From the IMG/VR virus record IMGVR_UViG_3300017971_000203: a DNA stretch of 64,000 nucleotides. The stretch is one strand, 5' to 3'. The notes below the pieces were generated by a model. It saw nothing but the letters and a program-made list of their open reading frames with translations, was not told where the DNA came from and did no database searches. This document shows positions 6,152 to 30,970 of the stretch, piece after piece (position 1 is the first letter of the stretch; every line of letters starts with the position of its first letter). The position numbers and the translations under genes were made by a program. The stretch is from a virus.

Positions 6152-6499
6152 TCAGCCCTCCAGCAACCGGTTGATCTCACGAAGAACAGTCTTCCGGTCC
6201 TTACGCGGCGCCTCATAGTCCCGGATCATGCGCAGCTCGCCTTCGTCAAAGTCCTCTGTCTCCAGGATGTCCAGGATCTCCCGGGCTGTCAGGTCGTCAT
6301 ACTCCTCGATGGGGAAGAGGGTGCTTTCCTCCTTCCACCCTTCGTCCACGACCGCGGTCCGGGTGGTCTCCCCAGGGAACGTGACCACCTCCTCAAAGAG
6401 CTCCGGGTGGACTCTCGCCACCTCCTCCGGGACCGAATCCCCGGGCCGCACCCGACCCTTGTAGAAGAATTGGACTCCATCATCCTTCTTCACGAACAT
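6152..6499 (-). CDS. Hypothetical protein with small helical C-terminal domain
   Basis: Start MFVKK after GGAGG; C-terminal YDDLTAREI...YE..RKDRKTVL helical module. Confidence 0.6.
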   Translation of the reverse strand: MFVKKDDGVQFFYKGRVRPGDSVPEEVARVHPELFEEVVTFPGETTRTAVVDEGWKEESTLFPIEEYDDLTAREILDILETEDFDEGELRMIRDYEAPRKDRKTVLREINRLLEG

Positions 6500-7037
6500 G
6501 CCGCACCTCCGCGCCCTCCCTGAGAGCTCCCATACCCAGATAATCACCGAAGCCCTGCTGCTGCGATTGCGGCGGTCGTGCCGCCGCAGGCGCCTCCCCA
6601 GGGCTCATCAACTCCTGCAGCACTGTCGCCTCGGCCTGGCTCCGAGGCGTCGGGTCTGCGAAGCGGCCCACCGTGGCCGGCAGCACCTCCTGGGCCTGGG
6701 GATCCCGCATCGGATACGCACTCCGCTCCAGCACAGGACGCCCCTTCGGGCGAACCGCCTTCTGGAGGCCAGGGCGCGCCTGACGCGGAGCAGGCAGGCC
6801 GCCTGTTCCCAAATCTTGTCGGAGCGCCACGAGACCGGCCCTCAGCTCCGCCAGCTCCCCCGCGATCGTATCCAGCCTCCCGATGGTCGCGTCCACGGCT
6901 TCCACCAGGACCGCTCCGCGATCAACTTCGGGCCCCTCCTCCACCACAGGCTCTGCCTGCGGCTCTTCCAGAGATGGGGGCTTGAGCACACCCAGCCCAT
7001 GCAACTGCTCAAGAACCTTCTTCGCCTTTCCTGCCAT
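6480..7037 (-). CDS. Hypothetical protein
   Basis: Start MAGKAKK after RBS GGGAG; first gene of the neck operon. Confidence 0.6.
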   Translation of the reverse strand: MAGKAKKVLEQLHGLGVLKPPSLEEPQAEPVVEEGPEVDRGAVLVEAVDATIGRLDTIAGELAELRAGLVALRQDLGTGGLPAPRQARPGLQKAVRPKGRPVLERSAYPMRDPQAQEVLPATVGRFADPTPRSQAEATVLQELMSPGEAPAAARPPQSQQQGFGDYLGMGALREGAEVRHVREEG

Positions 7038-7187
7038 CACCGTCTCCCTTCTGTCCGGATCGGACGATCCCAACTGCCCTGACTCGACTGTAGCGCGTCG
7101 TGCGGCGTGTCGTCCAGACAAGTGACAACGGTCCAGTATAGTCGCCCGCTCGAACAAAAGAAAAGCAGGCCTACGTCACGGTCGAGC

Positions 7188-7216
7188 TTTACACACGCTG
7201 TGATGTATGGTAGCGT
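7188..7216 (+). promoter_or_regulatory. Sigma70-type promoter for the leader/tRNA operon
   Basis: TTTACA-17 nt-TAGCGT with TG extension. The same TAGCGT -10 occurs at 55031 and 61088. Confidence 0.65.
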
Positions 7217-7262
7217 CAATTCGTTGGCTGGGCTCCTCCTCCAGTCACATCATGGTGAGACG

Positions 7263-7328
7263 ATGATGTCATTGCTTTCCAGTTACCTACTTCATCATTC
7301 GGCCCTGCCGAAGGGGGGTGCTGCGTAA
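7263..7328 (+). CDS. Attenuator leader peptide MMSLLSSYLLHHSALPKGGAA
   Basis: 21-aa ORF after GGTGAG. Codons 3-13 are only Ser/Leu/Tyr/His; the 3' part is complementary to the terminator 5' arm. Confidence 0.75.
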   Translation: MMSLLSSYLLHHSALPKGGAA

Positions 7329-7357
7329 GCACAGGTTCTGACACCCTGGTTCCAGTC

Positions 7358-7396
7358 AGCCCCTCTCGGCAGAAGTCGGGAGGGGCTTTCTGATTT
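7358..7396 (+). terminator. Attenuator intrinsic terminator
   Basis: 13-bp stem AGCCCCTCTCGGC/GTCGGGAGGGGCT, AGAA loop, then a T-rich run (TTTCTGATTT). Confidence 0.8.
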
Positions 7397-7397
7397 C

Positions 7398-7485
7398 GGG
7401 GGTTGTTCCCGCCGGCGGGCTGTAAACCCGTTGTCTTGTGAAACAGGTGGGTGGGCGACGAGAGGTTCAATTCCTTCAACCCTCA
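7398..7485 (+). tRNA. Atypical tRNA-Tyr(GTA)-like RNA, 8/4 fold, no canonical D-arm
   Basis: Acceptor GGGGGTTG/CAACCCTC; anticodon arm GGCGGG-CTGTAAA-CCCGTT; T-arm GAGG-TTCAATT-CCTT. Confidence 0.7.
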
Positions 7486-7557
7486 AACGCAGGCCTTGCG
7501 CGTGGGTTCGAATGCAAGCATAGTAGACAGTTCGAACCTTCGCGCAGGAGCACTGCA

Positions 7558-8067
7558 ATGACCACACGCCGAACCAGCACCGAAGAACGCATCAAGGACG
7601 CACACCGAAGGGGCTACCGAATTCGAAAAGACGGAAAAGTCATAGGGCTCAACGGTCGCATACTGAAAGTGCGTACAACCGGAGGGACCCCCTACCCGAA
7701 GTTCAACGTCGCCAAGCCCAGTCAGGGATCCATACCCGTCCATCGCTTCGCCGGGTTTCAATGGTTCGGAGAGATCGTGTTCCGGCCCGACATCCAAGTG
7801 CGCCATCTGGACGGAAACCCGTTCAATAACTCCAGAGACAACCTAGCCTTCGGAACCGCCAGCGAGAACATGCTCGACAGACCCGAAAAGGACCGAGCAG
7901 CTATCGCAAAGTACGCTGCATCACATCGCAGACGTTTGACAGAAGCACAAGTAGCCGAGCTCCGATCAATGCGGGACAACGGCGCCACCCTAGCAGAACT
8001 GGTAAAGGCCTTCGGAATAGCCAAATCAACCGTCTCCTACATCGTAAACCGAAGGACGTACAAGTAG
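7558..8067 (+). mobile_element. Free-standing HNH homing endonuclease with C-terminal HTH
   Basis: VHR...VRHLDGNPFNNSRDNL..GT.SEN motif; C-terminal helix-turn-helix; RBS AGGAG; inserted in the tRNA cluster. Confidence 0.88.
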
Positions 8068-8104
8068 GAGCCGTGGGTCTTTGACAATCGAGGATCTTCC
8101 GTCA

Positions 8105-8189
8105 GGAAGGAGCCACTGAGTGGTCAGTAACCGGTCTCGAAAGCCGGGGTGGGCACCGCGTCCCAGGGGTTCGATTCCTCCTCCTTCCC
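8105..8189 (+). tRNA. tRNA-Ser(CGA), 8/4 allo-tRNA-like
   Basis: Acceptor GGAAGGAG/CTCCTTCC (8 bp); 4-bp T-stem; 5-bp D-stem ACTGA-GTGG-TCAGT; long variable arm; anticodon 8138-8140. Confidence 0.8.
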
Positions 8190-8190
8190 T

Positions 8191-8266
8191 CGCCTCGTAG
8201 CTCAACTGGTTAGAGCGCCGGGTTGTGGTCCCGGAGGTGCGGATTCGAGTCCCGTCGAGGCGCCCA
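8191..8266 (+). tRNA. tRNA-His(GTG)
   Basis: Cloverleaf, anticodon 8225-8227, C73 plus encoded CCA. Position -1 is T, not G. Confidence 0.9.
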
Positions 8267-8340
8267 GCCATCGTAGTCCAACTGGAAGAGACGCAGGGTC
8301 GAGGGCCCTGATGTTGCGGGTTCGACTCCCACCGACGGCA
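8267..8340 (+). tRNA. tRNA-Leu(GAG), short variable loop, C33
   Basis: CAGGG-TCGAGGG-CCCTG anticodon arm; T-loop TTCGACT; one acceptor mismatch. Confidence 0.72.
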
Positions 8341-8381
8341 CTTGACTTTCGCCTCACCCCTCCCCCGGCTATCCTGAGCCC

Positions 8382-8630
8382 ATGAGGTGGAAGATGACCC
8401 TCATCCGAAGAACAGAAGAAGAAGACGCACCGGGGCTGGATGATCCCCCTCTCCAGGTAGGCGACGGTCTACTGGCGCTCTGGTGCTCGGGCTCCGGGGC
8501 CACCAGGTACCTGCCCAGGGAATTCATCGACGGGATCGTCGCAGACCCGACCTTGTTCTCCCGCCTCGTGGACGAGCTCCAGGAAGAGCTCAAAATGGTC
8601 CACGCCTGGAAATTCCGAAAGCCGGTGTGA
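8382..8630 (+). CDS. Hypothetical protein between two tRNA-Leu(GAG) copies
   Basis: 82-aa ORF whose stop lies inside the 5' end of the next tRNA. Confidence 0.5.
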   Translation: MRWKMTLIRRTEEEDAPGLDDPPLQVGDGLLALWCSGSGATRYLPREFIDGIVADPTLFSRLVDELQEELKMVHAWKFRKPV

Positions 8631-8694
8631 TCCAACTGGAAGAGGTGCAGGGTCGAGGGCCCTGTTGTTGCGGGTTCGACTCCCACCACCGGCA
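8621..8694 (+). tRNA. tRNA-Leu(GAG) second copy, short variable loop, C33
   Basis: Perfect acceptor GCCGGTG/CACCGGC; anticodon arm and T-arm identical to the 8267 copy. Confidence 0.75.
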
Positions 8695-8696
8695 TT

Positions 8697-8725
8697 GCCC
8701 CCGTAGCCCAGAAGGCAGAGGCCCC
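8697..8725 (+). pseudogene. Truncated tRNA 5' fragment
   Basis: GCCCCCGTAGCCCAGAAGGCAGAGGC has acceptor 5' strand and D-arm only. Confidence 0.55.
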
Positions 8726-8726
8726 G

Positions 8727-8800
8727 GTCCCGATAGTCTAATAGGCAAAGACAGCGCCTTTAAACAGCGCCGAATTCGGGTTCGAATCCCGATCGGGACA
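8727..8800 (+). tRNA. tRNA-Leu(TAA), short variable loop
   Basis: Acceptor GTCCCGA/TCGGGAC; anticodon 8761-8763; perfect T-arm; 31-39 mismatch. Confidence 0.75.
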
Positions 8801-8861
8801 TTGCCCCTCCGCCGCGCCGTCTGTACAGTCTTCGTAGCGACCACAGGCACAGGAGCGCATC

Positions 8862-9047
8862 ATGCCCATCCACTTTGAACGCTTCCGATTCCTCAACGGC
8901 ACCGGAAAACACGTGGAAAACGTGTCCTACCAGGGGCACATCTTCGTCAAGGTCGACGACCACCCCGAGATCGAGGTTCCTCCCGGAGAATCCCGGCCCA
9001 TCCCTGACGGCGAAGTGATCGAGGTCTCGGCCCCTCGGGAGCTGTGA
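8862..9047 (+). CDS. Hypothetical protein
   Basis: RBS AGGAG, 61 aa. Confidence 0.55.
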   Translation: MPIHFERFRFLNGTGKHVENVSYQGHIFVKVDDHPEIEVPPGESRPIPDGEVIEVSAPREL

Positions 9048-9054
9048 AGTCGCC

Positions 9055-9804
9055 ATGCTACAGCACCTGATCGACAAAGGCCGGAAGCTACTCGAAGCCC
9101 GCCCGATACCGCTTCCGAAGAAAGCCATCAACAAAACCATGAAGCGGCTCGTCGACCACCTGGAAGCGGCCTTCACAGAGCACGAGAAGGACTCCCCAGG
9201 AGAGCCACTCGGGAGCGGCATCTGGGCAGTAGCAGATCTCGACGTCACCGATGTGCTCGGAACAAAAAAAGCAATCCAGGTGATGATCCACTCCACGAAC
9301 TCTTCAGGCAACTCCCTAGGCGTCAACGCCCACTACAACGTCCGCACGAACGACATCGACATCTACATCCGTGGGCAGATCCCCGGGCAACTGGCTCTCC
9401 AGCTCCTCCGAGGAAAAGGCCGACGCAGTATCGAAGGCTCCATCCGGGACCTGCTCGAGCACGAACTCACCCACGCCCTCGACAACCTGCGCTGGGACCC
9501 TTCCACGTACAAGGGCTTCTTCTCCGACGACTACGAAGCCTCCGACGAAGGCAACGCCGCCCAGCTCCGCGACTTCAAGCGCTACGTCAACCAGCGCATC
9601 GAAGTGAACGCCCACATGCAACAGGTGGTGTCCCAGGTCCTCGTGGCCGCCGAGAAGTTCGCCCGGATTCTGACGAAGAAGTCCCCCCAGCAGCGGGTCC
9701 GCTTCCTACTGAAGCAGTCCGACACCTGGAAGGCCATCGGGAAGTATCTCAACTCCCGCAACAAACGGCGCATCCTGAAAGCGGTCTACGCAGCGCTGTC
9801 CTAG
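9055..9804 (+). CDS. Zincin-like metallopeptidase, putative internal head protein
   Basis: HELTH plus downstream EVNA; N-terminal LIDKGRKLLEA tag. Confidence 0.7.
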   Translation: MLQHLIDKGRKLLEARPIPLPKKAINKTMKRLVDHLEAAFTEHEKDSPGEPLGSGIWAVADLDVTDVLGTKKAIQVMIHSTNSSGNSLGVNAHYNVRTNDIDIYIRGQIPGQLALQLLRGKGRRSIEGSIRDLLEHELTHALDNLRWDPSTYKGFFSDDYEASDEGNAAQLRDFKRYVNQRIEVNAHMQQVVSQVLVAAEKFARILTKKSPQQRVRFLLKQSDTWKAIGKYLNSRNKRRILKAVYAALS

Positions 9805-10742
9805 ATCACGCCCATGTCCTGGAGCACAGTCACGACGCCCTTCTTGATGGTCTTCCGGCTCTTGGTCGTGAGCTGCCCCTGGATCTCGTTCCAGGTGTGC
9901 GACTGTCGCAGGAGAAACGTCACGGCCCGGCTCGGTGTCCAGGCCACGAGCTTCGACCGGTGCGCCGGTACCAGGTCCCGCACCTGGCTCGCGATCTCCT
10001 GCATGAAGGCCTTCACCTCTTCGGGCTGGTTCAGATAGCGCTTCCGAGCTGCCTTGGCGTCCTGCTTCCGCTGCTCCTTCGACGGAGGCGGCAACACACC
10101 GGCCTGCGACAACCGATCCTTGAAGCGCTGTACCGAGTGCCCGACGCCGAGCTCTTTCCGCTTCCGGGCAACCAGTCGGTGAGACACCTCGAAGCCGGTC
10201 ATCTTCAGGAGCTTCGACACCGCGCGATCCGAGAACGGGTGCAACGGATCCTCCCGCTGTAGGATCGCCGCAATGGTCTGCTGAAGCCGCTTTTTCCGAA
10301 GAACGTCCTTCGCGTGGGTGATCTCGTGCATCAGAGCGTACTTCATCGCGCCCTGAACGCTCGACATCTGAGTACCCTTCAGGAGCGGCACGATCTCACC
10401 CGCGCCAAGGTTGCCGTTCATTTGCACCTGTATGATCCGGTCCCGGGGCATGTAGACCGCACCAAGGAAAAGGCCCCTCACACCCCTCTGCTGGACGCTC
10501 ACGATCGACACGGGTATTTCCCGCTTCTTCCCCCTCACGTCCGAAACAGAGATGGTCTCGGTCCCCCAGACCTTATTCCCTAGGGGTGCAAGGGGAGACG
10601 TCCGTGCGAGGGAACGCAAAGAGGGCTCGAACTGCTTCATAAGCCGCTTCACCAGAGCCTCGACCACTTGGGGAGGCAACGCGATCGGACGCGCTTCGTC
10701 CAGGAGCTCCCGTCCCCGCTCAATGGTCTCCGAGATGCTCAT
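9801..10742 (-). CDS. Zincin-like metallopeptidase with inserted sigma54 RpoN-box DNA-binding domain
   Basis: HEITH...EVKA; insert EDPLHPFSDRAVSKLL...VSHRLVARKRKELGVGHSVQR; N-terminal IERGRELLDEA tag. Confidence 0.72.
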   Translation of the reverse strand: MSISETIERGRELLDEARPIALPPQVVEALVKRLMKQFEPSLRSLARTSPLAPLGNKVWGTETISVSDVRGKKREIPVSIVSVQQRGVRGLFLGAVYMPRDRIIQVQMNGNLGAGEIVPLLKGTQMSSVQGAMKYALMHEITHAKDVLRKKRLQQTIAAILQREDPLHPFSDRAVSKLLKMTGFEVSHRLVARKRKELGVGHSVQRFKDRLSQAGVLPPPSKEQRKQDAKAARKRYLNQPEEVKAFMQEIASQVRDLVPAHRSKLVAWTPSRAVTFLLRQSHTWNEIQGQLTTKSRKTIKKGVVTVLQDMGVI

Positions 10743-11095
10743 GACTTCTCCAGATCCGCCAGCGCCTTGTGAGCCTTGTCGGTCAACTCGTACTGCTCGT
10801 CCCAGGTTGGTGAACTCTTCCACCGACCTGTTGCATCAGCCCCCGCCGACGTCGACAGCCCCTGCCGGCGCTTCCCGACAGCCTTCACGAAACCCCTCTT
10901 CTCGAGCTTGCGGACCATGTTCAGCTCGCGCCTCGTGGTCGCAGCATCCACCCGGAACTTCCCCCCGATGGTGAACTGCAACCTGGCAACCATGGCCTTG
11001 GTCAGCTTCAGCTTCTTCGCCCGACTGAGAGCCTTCGGCTTCGCCTCACCCAAGAGCCCCCGACCCTTTTCGATTACTTCAGACAACTGGCTCAT
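10739..11095 (-). CDS. Basic, possibly winged-helix, putative internal head protein
   Basis: N-terminus MSQLSEVIEKGRGLLGEAK; RKLEKRGFV...YELTDKA wHTH-like pattern. Confidence 0.6.
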   Translation of the reverse strand: MSQLSEVIEKGRGLLGEAKPKALSRAKKLKLTKAMVARLQFTIGGKFRVDAATTRRELNMVRKLEKRGFVKAVGKRRQGLSTSAGADATGRWKSSPTWDEQYELTDKAHKALADLEKS

Positions 11096-29906: not shown

Positions 29907-30116
29907 TCAAGACCGAGGTCCGAACACGTACACCTTGTCGGAGTGCGCCTTCCGTTTCTTGGCCGCGATGGCGTTGGCTTCTTTCTCGGTGTCCACGTGC
30001 GCGATGAGGTAGAGCTCTTCCCCCGGCTTCTCGAACGAGTCGACACCGACCACGTTGTAACCGCTCTCCGGGACGAACTGCTTCTTCTGCGCCAGGCGCT
30101 TCGACATGCTGCTCAT
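29907..30116 (-). CDS. Small hypothetical protein coupled to the SAS gene
   Basis: ATGA overlap with the SAS stop. Confidence 0.6.
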   Translation of the reverse strand: MSSMSKRLAQKKQFVPESGYNVVGVDSFEKPGEELYLIAHVDTEKEANAIAAKKRKAHSDKVYVFGPRS

Positions 30117-30970
30117 TTCCGTCTCCTTAGTCGGACCTTCTCGGGGTTGATGCAGCCGAAAAAGTTCCGAGCCACATCAGGACAAGGCGGCGGCTCCACG
30201 GGGTCTTCCCCCTTGTCCGCCTTGAAGATGAAGTCGCTCATGTCGGCAGAGTACTTGTCCAGCTCTCCCGACCCGTGCTCGAGCGCAACCTCCTGCTCGG
30301 GAGTCTGCGGCTTGTAGACATCGTGCGACCACTCTGCAAAGTCGTGCTGCCCCGGCGTCCGGATCTGGAGCTCCTTGGTCATCCCGTCTTCGTCGACCAC
30401 GGTGAAGTGGTAACTCCGATAGTCACCGCGCGGGTTGTTGACGTAGTCGTCGTCGAAGACCACCTCATAGTTCTCCTGGACCTTCTTCGCCGTCTCGAAG
30501 ACCTGCTCGAGGTCGTCCACCTCGATCCGGATGCCCGTGGCATCTGTGATCATGCCCGGACGGGGATACTTCCAGTCTTCCCACTTGCCCGGGTTGCGCA
30601 CGATCTTCCCCAGGATGCTCTCCATGGTTTTCACACGCCCCGTGATCCGGGCTCCTTCCGGCGCCATCGCGCTGAGACGCTTCTTCGCCTGGTCGAAGCC
30701 CGCTGCGTGCTTCTGCCGGAGCTCTTGCGCCTCGGCAACATGATCGGCCAAAGACATCCCGGGCTCGAGAATCCCGGAATCGACGATCTTCCCGAGCTCC
30801 TTGATGACAGAAGAATGGGCCTCCCCGCCCCCGGTCCTGCGCTCCTTCACACGAACCCACGTCCCGTCCGGTAGTTTCATGTGCGGGCCGCGCTTACGTT
30901 GTCGGACCGTCCACGGAGGGTAGGTGAGCTCTTGCAGGATCTTCCGGCCTTCCTCGATCAAGCGCTTCAT
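30113..30970 (-). CDS. RelA/SpoT-family small alarmone synthetase (SAS)
   Basis: GRVKT.ES..K, DATGIRI, DDY..NP..YRSYH and ELQIRT...HDFAEWSH..YK; N-terminal LIEEGRKILQE tag. Confidence 0.88.
   Translation of the reverse strand: MKRLIEEGRKILQELTYPPWTVRQRKRGPHMKLPDGTWVRVKERRTGGGEAHSSVIKELGKIVDSGILEPGMSLADHVAEAQELRQKHAAGFDQAKKRLSAMAPEGARITGRVKTMESILGKIVRNPGKWEDWKYPRPGMITDATGIRIEVDDLEQVFETAKKVQENYEVVFDDDYVNNPRGDYRSYHFTVVDEDGMTKELQIRTPGQHDFAEWSHDVYKPQTPEQEVALEHGSGELDKYSADMSDFIFKADKGEDPVEPPPCPDVARNFFGCINPEKVRLRRRK

Follow-up and report, generated by a model that had tools for sequence, protein, structure and literature searches.

We analysed a window of 64,000 nucleotides from an uncultured T4-like myophage (IMG/VR record IMGVR_UViG_3300017971_000203), in which a plus-strand transfer RNA (tRNA) operon is preceded by an element that is probably a trp-type ribosome-mediated leader-peptide transcription attenuator. 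This reading is drawn from the sequence and from comparison with one homologous lineage; its working parts would be translation of a short leader open reading frame (ORF), termination at a hairpin behind it and read-through of this hairpin when the ribosome stalls. An earlier note on the same DNA had described a promoter, a 21-residue leader ORF, a terminator and tRNA genes in this order, and all are located where it had placed them. The promoter (7188-7216) consists of TTTACA (7188-7193), a spacer of 17 nucleotides and TAGCGT (7211-7216). The leader ORF (7263-7328) comprises 21 codons followed by TAA, MMSLLSSYLLHHSALPKGGAA, with the ATG at 7263 and the stop codon at 7326-7328. The T-run of the terminator abuts the first tRNA-like gene, which starts at 7397, and therefore leaves no space for a second promoter between the two.

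The leader is distinguished by its regulatory codons 3-13 (7269-7301; TCA TTG CTT TCC AGT TAC CTA CTT CAT CAT TCG), which all specify Ser, Leu, Tyr or His (11/11), in agreement with the restriction described before. This is the only run of at least nine such codons in the six frames of the window. The number of runs of at least 11 codons expected per window is 0.008 based on composition and 0.015 based on dinucleotide shuffles.

The three mutually exclusive helices 1:2, 2:3 and 3:4 proposed for the leader RNA are present as claimed. Region 1 (7289-7303), the anti-antiterminator strand, lies within the codon run. Region 2 (7305-7319) can pair with either region 1 or region 3, and region 3 (7358-7372) serves both as the 5' arm of the terminator and as the antiterminator partner, while region 4 (7375-7397) contains the terminator's 3' arm together with the T-run TTTCTGATTTC. 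The terminator hairpin (7358-7387) has a 13-bp stem with a predicted energy of -25.3 kcal/mol. The predicted fold of the complete leader contains the 1:2 hairpin and the terminator. When the transcript is ended before region 4, region 2 (7305-7317) is predicted to pair with region 3 (7360-7372). This 2:3 duplex has an energy of -26.2 kcal/mol compared to -14.3 +/- 2.8 kcal/mol in 1000 dinucleotide shuffles of the leader, only one of which was as low (p ~0.001). The Rfam models for the Trp, His, Leu and Thr leaders and for the T-box give no match at E values up to 5 between 6900 and 9100; the sole Rfam match on the leader is NsiR1 with 20.5 bits, under its cut-off of 39 bits.

For comparison, we used the gp13-like protein encoded two genes from the leader, for which profile scans gave 63 metagenome and 40 IMG/VR loci. 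Among these loci, tRNAs at the corresponding place are found in the L002 group only, i.e. the contigs L002, L003 and L006 together with their IMG/VR copies, recovered from three Joint Genome Institute (JGI) samples. All members are identical in the leader region and count as one lineage, and their gp13 is 65% identical to that of the window. The L002 leader MQVLLSSYYLLSSVPPGEAPV likewise comprises 21 codons; its ATG and TAA align with those of the window and the ORF is free of indels, which do occur in the flanks. Its terminator hairpin (-26.9 kcal/mol) is followed by TTTTCTTTTTC, then by a small HNH ORF and by genes for tRNA-Tyr(GTA), Ser(TGA), Leu(GAG), Ser(GCT), Leu(TAG), Leu(CAG) and Leu(CAA). 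The 2:3 duplex of L002 reaches -32.0 kcal/mol against -18.4 +/- 3.2 kcal/mol in shuffles (p ~0.003). In both lineages, minimum free energy (MFE) folds at growing transcript lengths show the 1:2 helix, then the 2:3 helix and then 1:2 together with 3:4. Folds constrained by a ribosome footprint, which speak to geometry only, agree between the lineages: a ribosome stalled at codons 5-10 permits the 2:3 helix, and one placed at the stop codon prevents it from forming.

These structures suggest how the element may operate. Host RNA polymerase would start at the TTTACA-17-TAnnnT promoter and a ribosome would translate the 21-codon leader. Upon quick reading of the Leu, Ser, Tyr and, in the window, His codons the ribosome would arrive at the TAA and cover region 2, allowing the 3:4 helix to form, and transcription would stop at ~7390-7397, immediately ahead of the first tRNA gene. 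Upon slow decoding, a stalled ribosome would hold region 1, so that 2:3 could form, the terminator would be blocked and the tRNA genes would be transcribed. As the output tRNAs carry the amino acids that the leader tests, such an arrangement would amount to demand-driven negative feedback on tRNA supply.

The substitutions between the two leaders are informative with respect to what is selected. The L002 run reads LLSSYYLLSS, i.e. 10/10 codons for Leu, Ser or Tyr and no His codon. In both lineages, codons 4-13 specify only amino acids that the array serves, despite the non-synonymous changes Leu to Tyr at codon 9, His to Leu at codon 11 and His to Ser at codon 12. The window has a tRNA-His gene and two His codons, and the leader-led unit of L002 has neither. 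Thus, the expectation that leader codons follow tRNA content in a related phage holds at the amino-acid level, with His codons occurring only alongside tRNA-His. Since the L002 contigs are 8-10% complete, the lack of tRNA-His can be stated for this unit only. Codons 5-8 (CTT TCC AGT TAC), which are best placed for stalling, are the same in both lineages. Across codons 14-21, by contrast, 7/8 positions differ regardless of amino acid (A to V, L to P, K to G, G to E and others). This pattern fits selection on codon class and RNA pairing rather than on the peptide.

The same comparison bears on the possibility that the product of the ORF, a peptide of 21 residues, is itself functional and that its gene has a terminator of its own, with incidental read-through reaching the tRNAs. 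We regard this as very improbable. The stretch LLSSY is kept at the amino-acid level, and trans-acting leader peptides are known, for example peTrpL (PMC7298713). However, 7/8 of the C-terminal residues differ, yet the RNA pairing is retained across them; the exchanges at codons 9, 11 and 12 (L>Y, H>L, H>S) are not conservative, and the stop codon is placed where a terminating ribosome masks region 2.

An attenuator would also predict that the alternative pairings are maintained together. Pairing was compared on an alignment ending at region 3 (A5), a full-leader MAFFT alignment having put region 3 off by 2 nucleotides. The 2:3 helix is 80% paired compared to 43-61% when slid, with the same register in both lineages, and contains two compensatory pairs, G-C/A-U (7307-7370) and A-U/G-C (7311-7366). 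The 1:2 helix is 91% paired compared to 45-64% when slid, again in both lineages, and likewise contains two compensatory pairs (7295-7311 and 7303-7307). The region 2 bases 7307 and 7311 (columns 45 and 49) each covary with their partners in region 1 and in region 3. Such covariation of both variable region 2 bases with alternative partners is the signature expected of a switch, but carries no statistical weight because there are only two sequences. The leader ORF and the 2:3 pairing are thus both conserved, with compensatory changes, in the single homologous lineage found. Comparative data from this lineage therefore support the proposal of trp/his-type attenuation.

Several observations weigh against an attenuator and have to be set beside this evidence. 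The leader ORF has a weak Shine-Dalgarno pairing (-5.8 kcal/mol in the window and -4.6 kcal/mol in L002, near the background of -4.0 kcal/mol, with a gene median of -6.6 kcal/mol), and in the window the leader ATG sits inside a hairpin of the predicted fold. The T-run of the window is interrupted. Only two independent sequences are available, and the pair-count shuffle controls gave 118-139 of 500. Weak initiation signals and the small number of lineages would also suit a plain leaky terminator, an RNA structure for 5' processing or stabilisation, or a small RNA with its end at 7390, with an untranslated ORF whose composition reflects chance or an RNA-level constraint. The nucleotide identity of TGCTTTCCAGTTAC could in that case be an RNA or DNA motif. 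Such an explanation is unlikely, as it does not account for an ATG, a length and a TAA that are conserved without indels in both lineages, for substitutions that keep within the amino-acid set of the array, for a codon run expected only ~0.01 times per window, or for the three-way covariation of region 2, which a switch predicts and a single hairpin does not.

Other points against an attenuator concern what the leader would sense. The match between leader and array is one of amino acids, not of codons, and is no better than codon usage predicts. Anticodons of the array itself account for only 7/11 leader codons, leaving TCA, TCC, AGT and CTA unmatched; a codon-level correspondence of leader and anticodons was considered and is not upheld. 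In addition, the Tyr gene of the window is aberrant, the operon of the window also holds protein genes, and both genomes are visible only in part, so that other tRNA genes may lie elsewhere. Three of the unmatched codons, TCA, AGT and CTA, are those of the L002 tRNAs Ser(TGA), Ser(GCT) and Leu(TAG). This coincidence suggests that an ancestral array was richer than that of the window; the overall match is still what codon usage alone gives. The absence of a better codon match, together with the protein genes in the operon, would be compatible with an attenuator responding to amino-acid starvation in general or to slowed translation throughout the host, with ermC-like or stringent-like timing of phage gene expression, instead of to the supply of the array tRNAs. 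A general sensor of this kind appears decidedly unlikely, given that the composition is limited to the array amino acids in both lineages and that His follows tRNA-His. On balance, we favour the trp-type attenuator of the tRNA operon.

What would trigger such an attenuator is a separate question. There is no direct support for the earlier inference that the trigger is the loss of host tRNAs to anticodon nucleases. In bacteria, Leu, Ser and Tyr are the three identities of class II tRNAs, i.e. those with a long variable arm. The arrays (7397-8800 in the window and 5931-6610 in L002) are limited to Leu, Ser and Tyr identities, to which only the window adds another, His. In both lineages, every tRNA with a Leu anticodon, seven in total (window 8267-8341, 8621-8694 and 8727-8800; L002 5931-6357), is 73-79 nucleotides long and, at this length, is without the long variable arm usual in bacterial tRNA-Leu. 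In the window, all three Leu tRNAs have A73 at their end, and both Leu(GAG) copies carry C and not U at position 33. Among nucleotidyltransferase toxins, MenT3 is reported to be specific for tRNA-Ser and the abortive-infection toxin AbiEii to prefer long-arm tRNAs (bioRxiv 10.64898/2026.01.19.700257). The restriction of the arrays, the short-armed Leu tRNAs and this toxin preference make it attractive to speculate that the cassette is an inducible counter-defence against immunity that disables class II tRNAs, in which a stall at Leu, Ser or Tyr codons switches on replacement tRNAs, some of them resistant; we consider this doubtful at present. Bacterial Schlafen was also considered as a class II-specific nuclease, which is unsupported since the Schlafen paper reports no class II specificity.

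With respect to the tRNA genes of the window, the set given in the earlier note stands for Ser(CGA), His(GTG) and Leu(GAG) (8105-8341) and for a second Leu(GAG) and Leu(TAA) (8621-8800), which are called by ARAGORN and Rfam on the plus strand; the latter two are 74 nucleotides long and have no long variable arm. It does not stand in the same way for Tyr(GTA). The Tyr(GTA)-like gene (7397-7485, plus strand), at the place of the first L002 tRNA, Tyr(GTA), is missed by ARAGORN, scores 24 bits on the Rfam tRNA-Sec model (E 0.08) and is without a normal D-arm. The array is split by a plus-strand HNH homing-endonuclease gene (7558-8067; PF13392, 28.8 bits; phrog_59, 1.3e-22). The HNH insertion points differ between the lineages: the ORF of the window, with 169 residues, lies after the Tyr-like gene, and that of L002 (6610-6780), with 56 residues, between the terminator and tRNA-Tyr. 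L002 also contains a tRNA-like fragment of ~50 nucleotides with acceptor and T-arm between tRNA-Tyr and tRNA-Ser (~6476-6525, equal to G006:C1:7399-7448, minus strand), which scores 20 bits on the tRNA model, under the cut-off.

The phage encodes a T4-type portal, a prohead protease and the gp13-like adaptor and has ~60% G+C; the longest contig bearing the genes of the window has 153,100 bp. Most genes of the window are on the minus strand. The short plus-strand unit begins in a divergent intergenic region (~7040-7260) and ends at 9804, holding beyond the tRNAs the HNH gene and three further ORFs. The promoter and the ATG-to-TAA ORF are kept in both lineages, with CTTTACACACGCT of the promoter identical in L002, and TTTACA-N17-TANNNT occurs once in the 64-kb window. 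The window promoter is not listed by a consensus scanner because its -10 element matches at only 3/6 positions; the homologous L002 promoter, TTTACA-17-TACATT, passes the scan. Upstream of the -35 element, the A-rich block CAAAAGAAAAG (7155-7165, plus strand), present in one copy in the window and identical in L002, is possibly an UP element. A second promoter-like site, CAGACA-16-TATAGT, lies 70 nucleotides upstream (7115-7142), with GTCCAG and CAGTATAG kept in L002; this site may act as a further plus-strand promoter or as a signal that serves the divergent structural operon.

Between promoter and leader ORF, a 5' hairpin (7226-7246, plus strand) exposes CUCCUCC in its loop. A hairpin in the corresponding position of L002 (6972-6993, minus strand) differs in its stem, and its loop contains CCACCUCCUU. 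The loop motif CCUCC common to both lineages despite the differing stems is anti-Shine-Dalgarno-like; it may base-pair with the G-run in region 2, or else have an effect in trans on the terminated leader RNA. A minus-strand ORF using the CCTCC motif as a reverse-strand Shine-Dalgarno sequence was rejected, as the ATG of L002 there stands directly before a stop codon. Elsewhere on the minus strand, the window encodes a 340-residue protein with a Sigma54 DNA-binding domain (9801-10823; PF04552, 6e-09), of which a 315-residue homologue with the same domain is found near gp23 in the relative L004, and a small alarmone synthetase (30113-30970; RelA_SpoT domain PF04607, 58.9 bits). Some enzymes of the small alarmone synthetase type pyrophosphorylate tRNA 3' ends.

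Megablast and blastn of 7040-8900 against GenBank phages gave no homologue and short tRNA matches only, and single-protein scans of IMG/VR with neighbouring proteins gave no relative. The adjacent 185-residue protein matches only itself in a set of 5.8 billion proteins; a second contig bearing it, L001, shows 100% identity with the window, which makes it uninformative as a comparison. Three leader, promoter and terminator patterns retrieved nothing from IMG/VR beyond the L002 group, and the same terminator pattern gave nine matches in bacterial genomes, none with tRNAs, which were taken as chance. The distant gp13 relatives G002, G003 and G005 (the records of L073, L077 and L081) have 11-40 tRNA genes far from gp13, with tRNA-Met first in each array, and no comparable leader was seen upstream of these arrays.

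Why phages carry tRNA genes and how their expression is timed is a long-standing question. In the literature searched, we came across no phage tRNA genes reported to be under demand-sensing control, and full-text literature searches gave no account of attenuation ahead of tRNA genes in phages or cells. A leader that measures the decoding of the amino acids of its array would show that phage tRNA supply is regulated by demand, and the tracking of array content by leader content between two lineages provides direct comparative evidence here. The restriction of the arrays to class II identities suggests that these tRNAs are under a specific pressure. In addition, the leader would offer a compact and testable means of sensing how fast chosen codons are decoded.

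Among known systems, T5 tRNAs are reported to counter PARIS and retron effectors (PMC11464382, PMC11555353), and phage tRNAs with anticodon-loop variants are presented as counter-defence (PMC10264068). The element described here would share with them the replacement by phage tRNA genes of host tRNAs lost to defence systems. T-box riboswitches likewise sense tRNA charging by a choice between terminator and antiterminator, but they lack a leader ORF and recognise uncharged tRNA by direct binding, and there is no T-box match in 6900-9100. Leader-peptide attenuation of an aminoacyl-tRNA synthetase operon is known from E. coli pheST. In bacilli, a His leader precedes hisS paralogues (PMC2965389). 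In these synthetase leaders, too, a ribosome held up at cognate codons increases the expression of a part of the translation machinery that serves the amino acid in question; however, their output is an enzyme and not a tRNA, they are cellular and not viral, and a single amino acid is sensed.

The closest likeness in design is to the amino-acid operon attenuators. In E. coli these include trpL, hisL and leuL as well as multivalent leaders, with ilvGMEDA sensing Ile, Leu and Val and thr sensing Thr and Ile. The phage element appears to share their layout of promoter, short ORF with regulatory codons, exclusive 1:2, 2:3 and 3:4 helices and intrinsic terminator; its stop codon would similarly let a terminating ribosome mask region 2, and one leader would serve several amino acids. 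It differs in being phage-borne, in having no sequence or Rfam kinship with them and in controlling tRNA genes instead of enzymes, so that its output would make good a lack of tRNA and not one of amino acid. If this reading is true, trp-type attenuation extends from enzymes to the tRNAs themselves.

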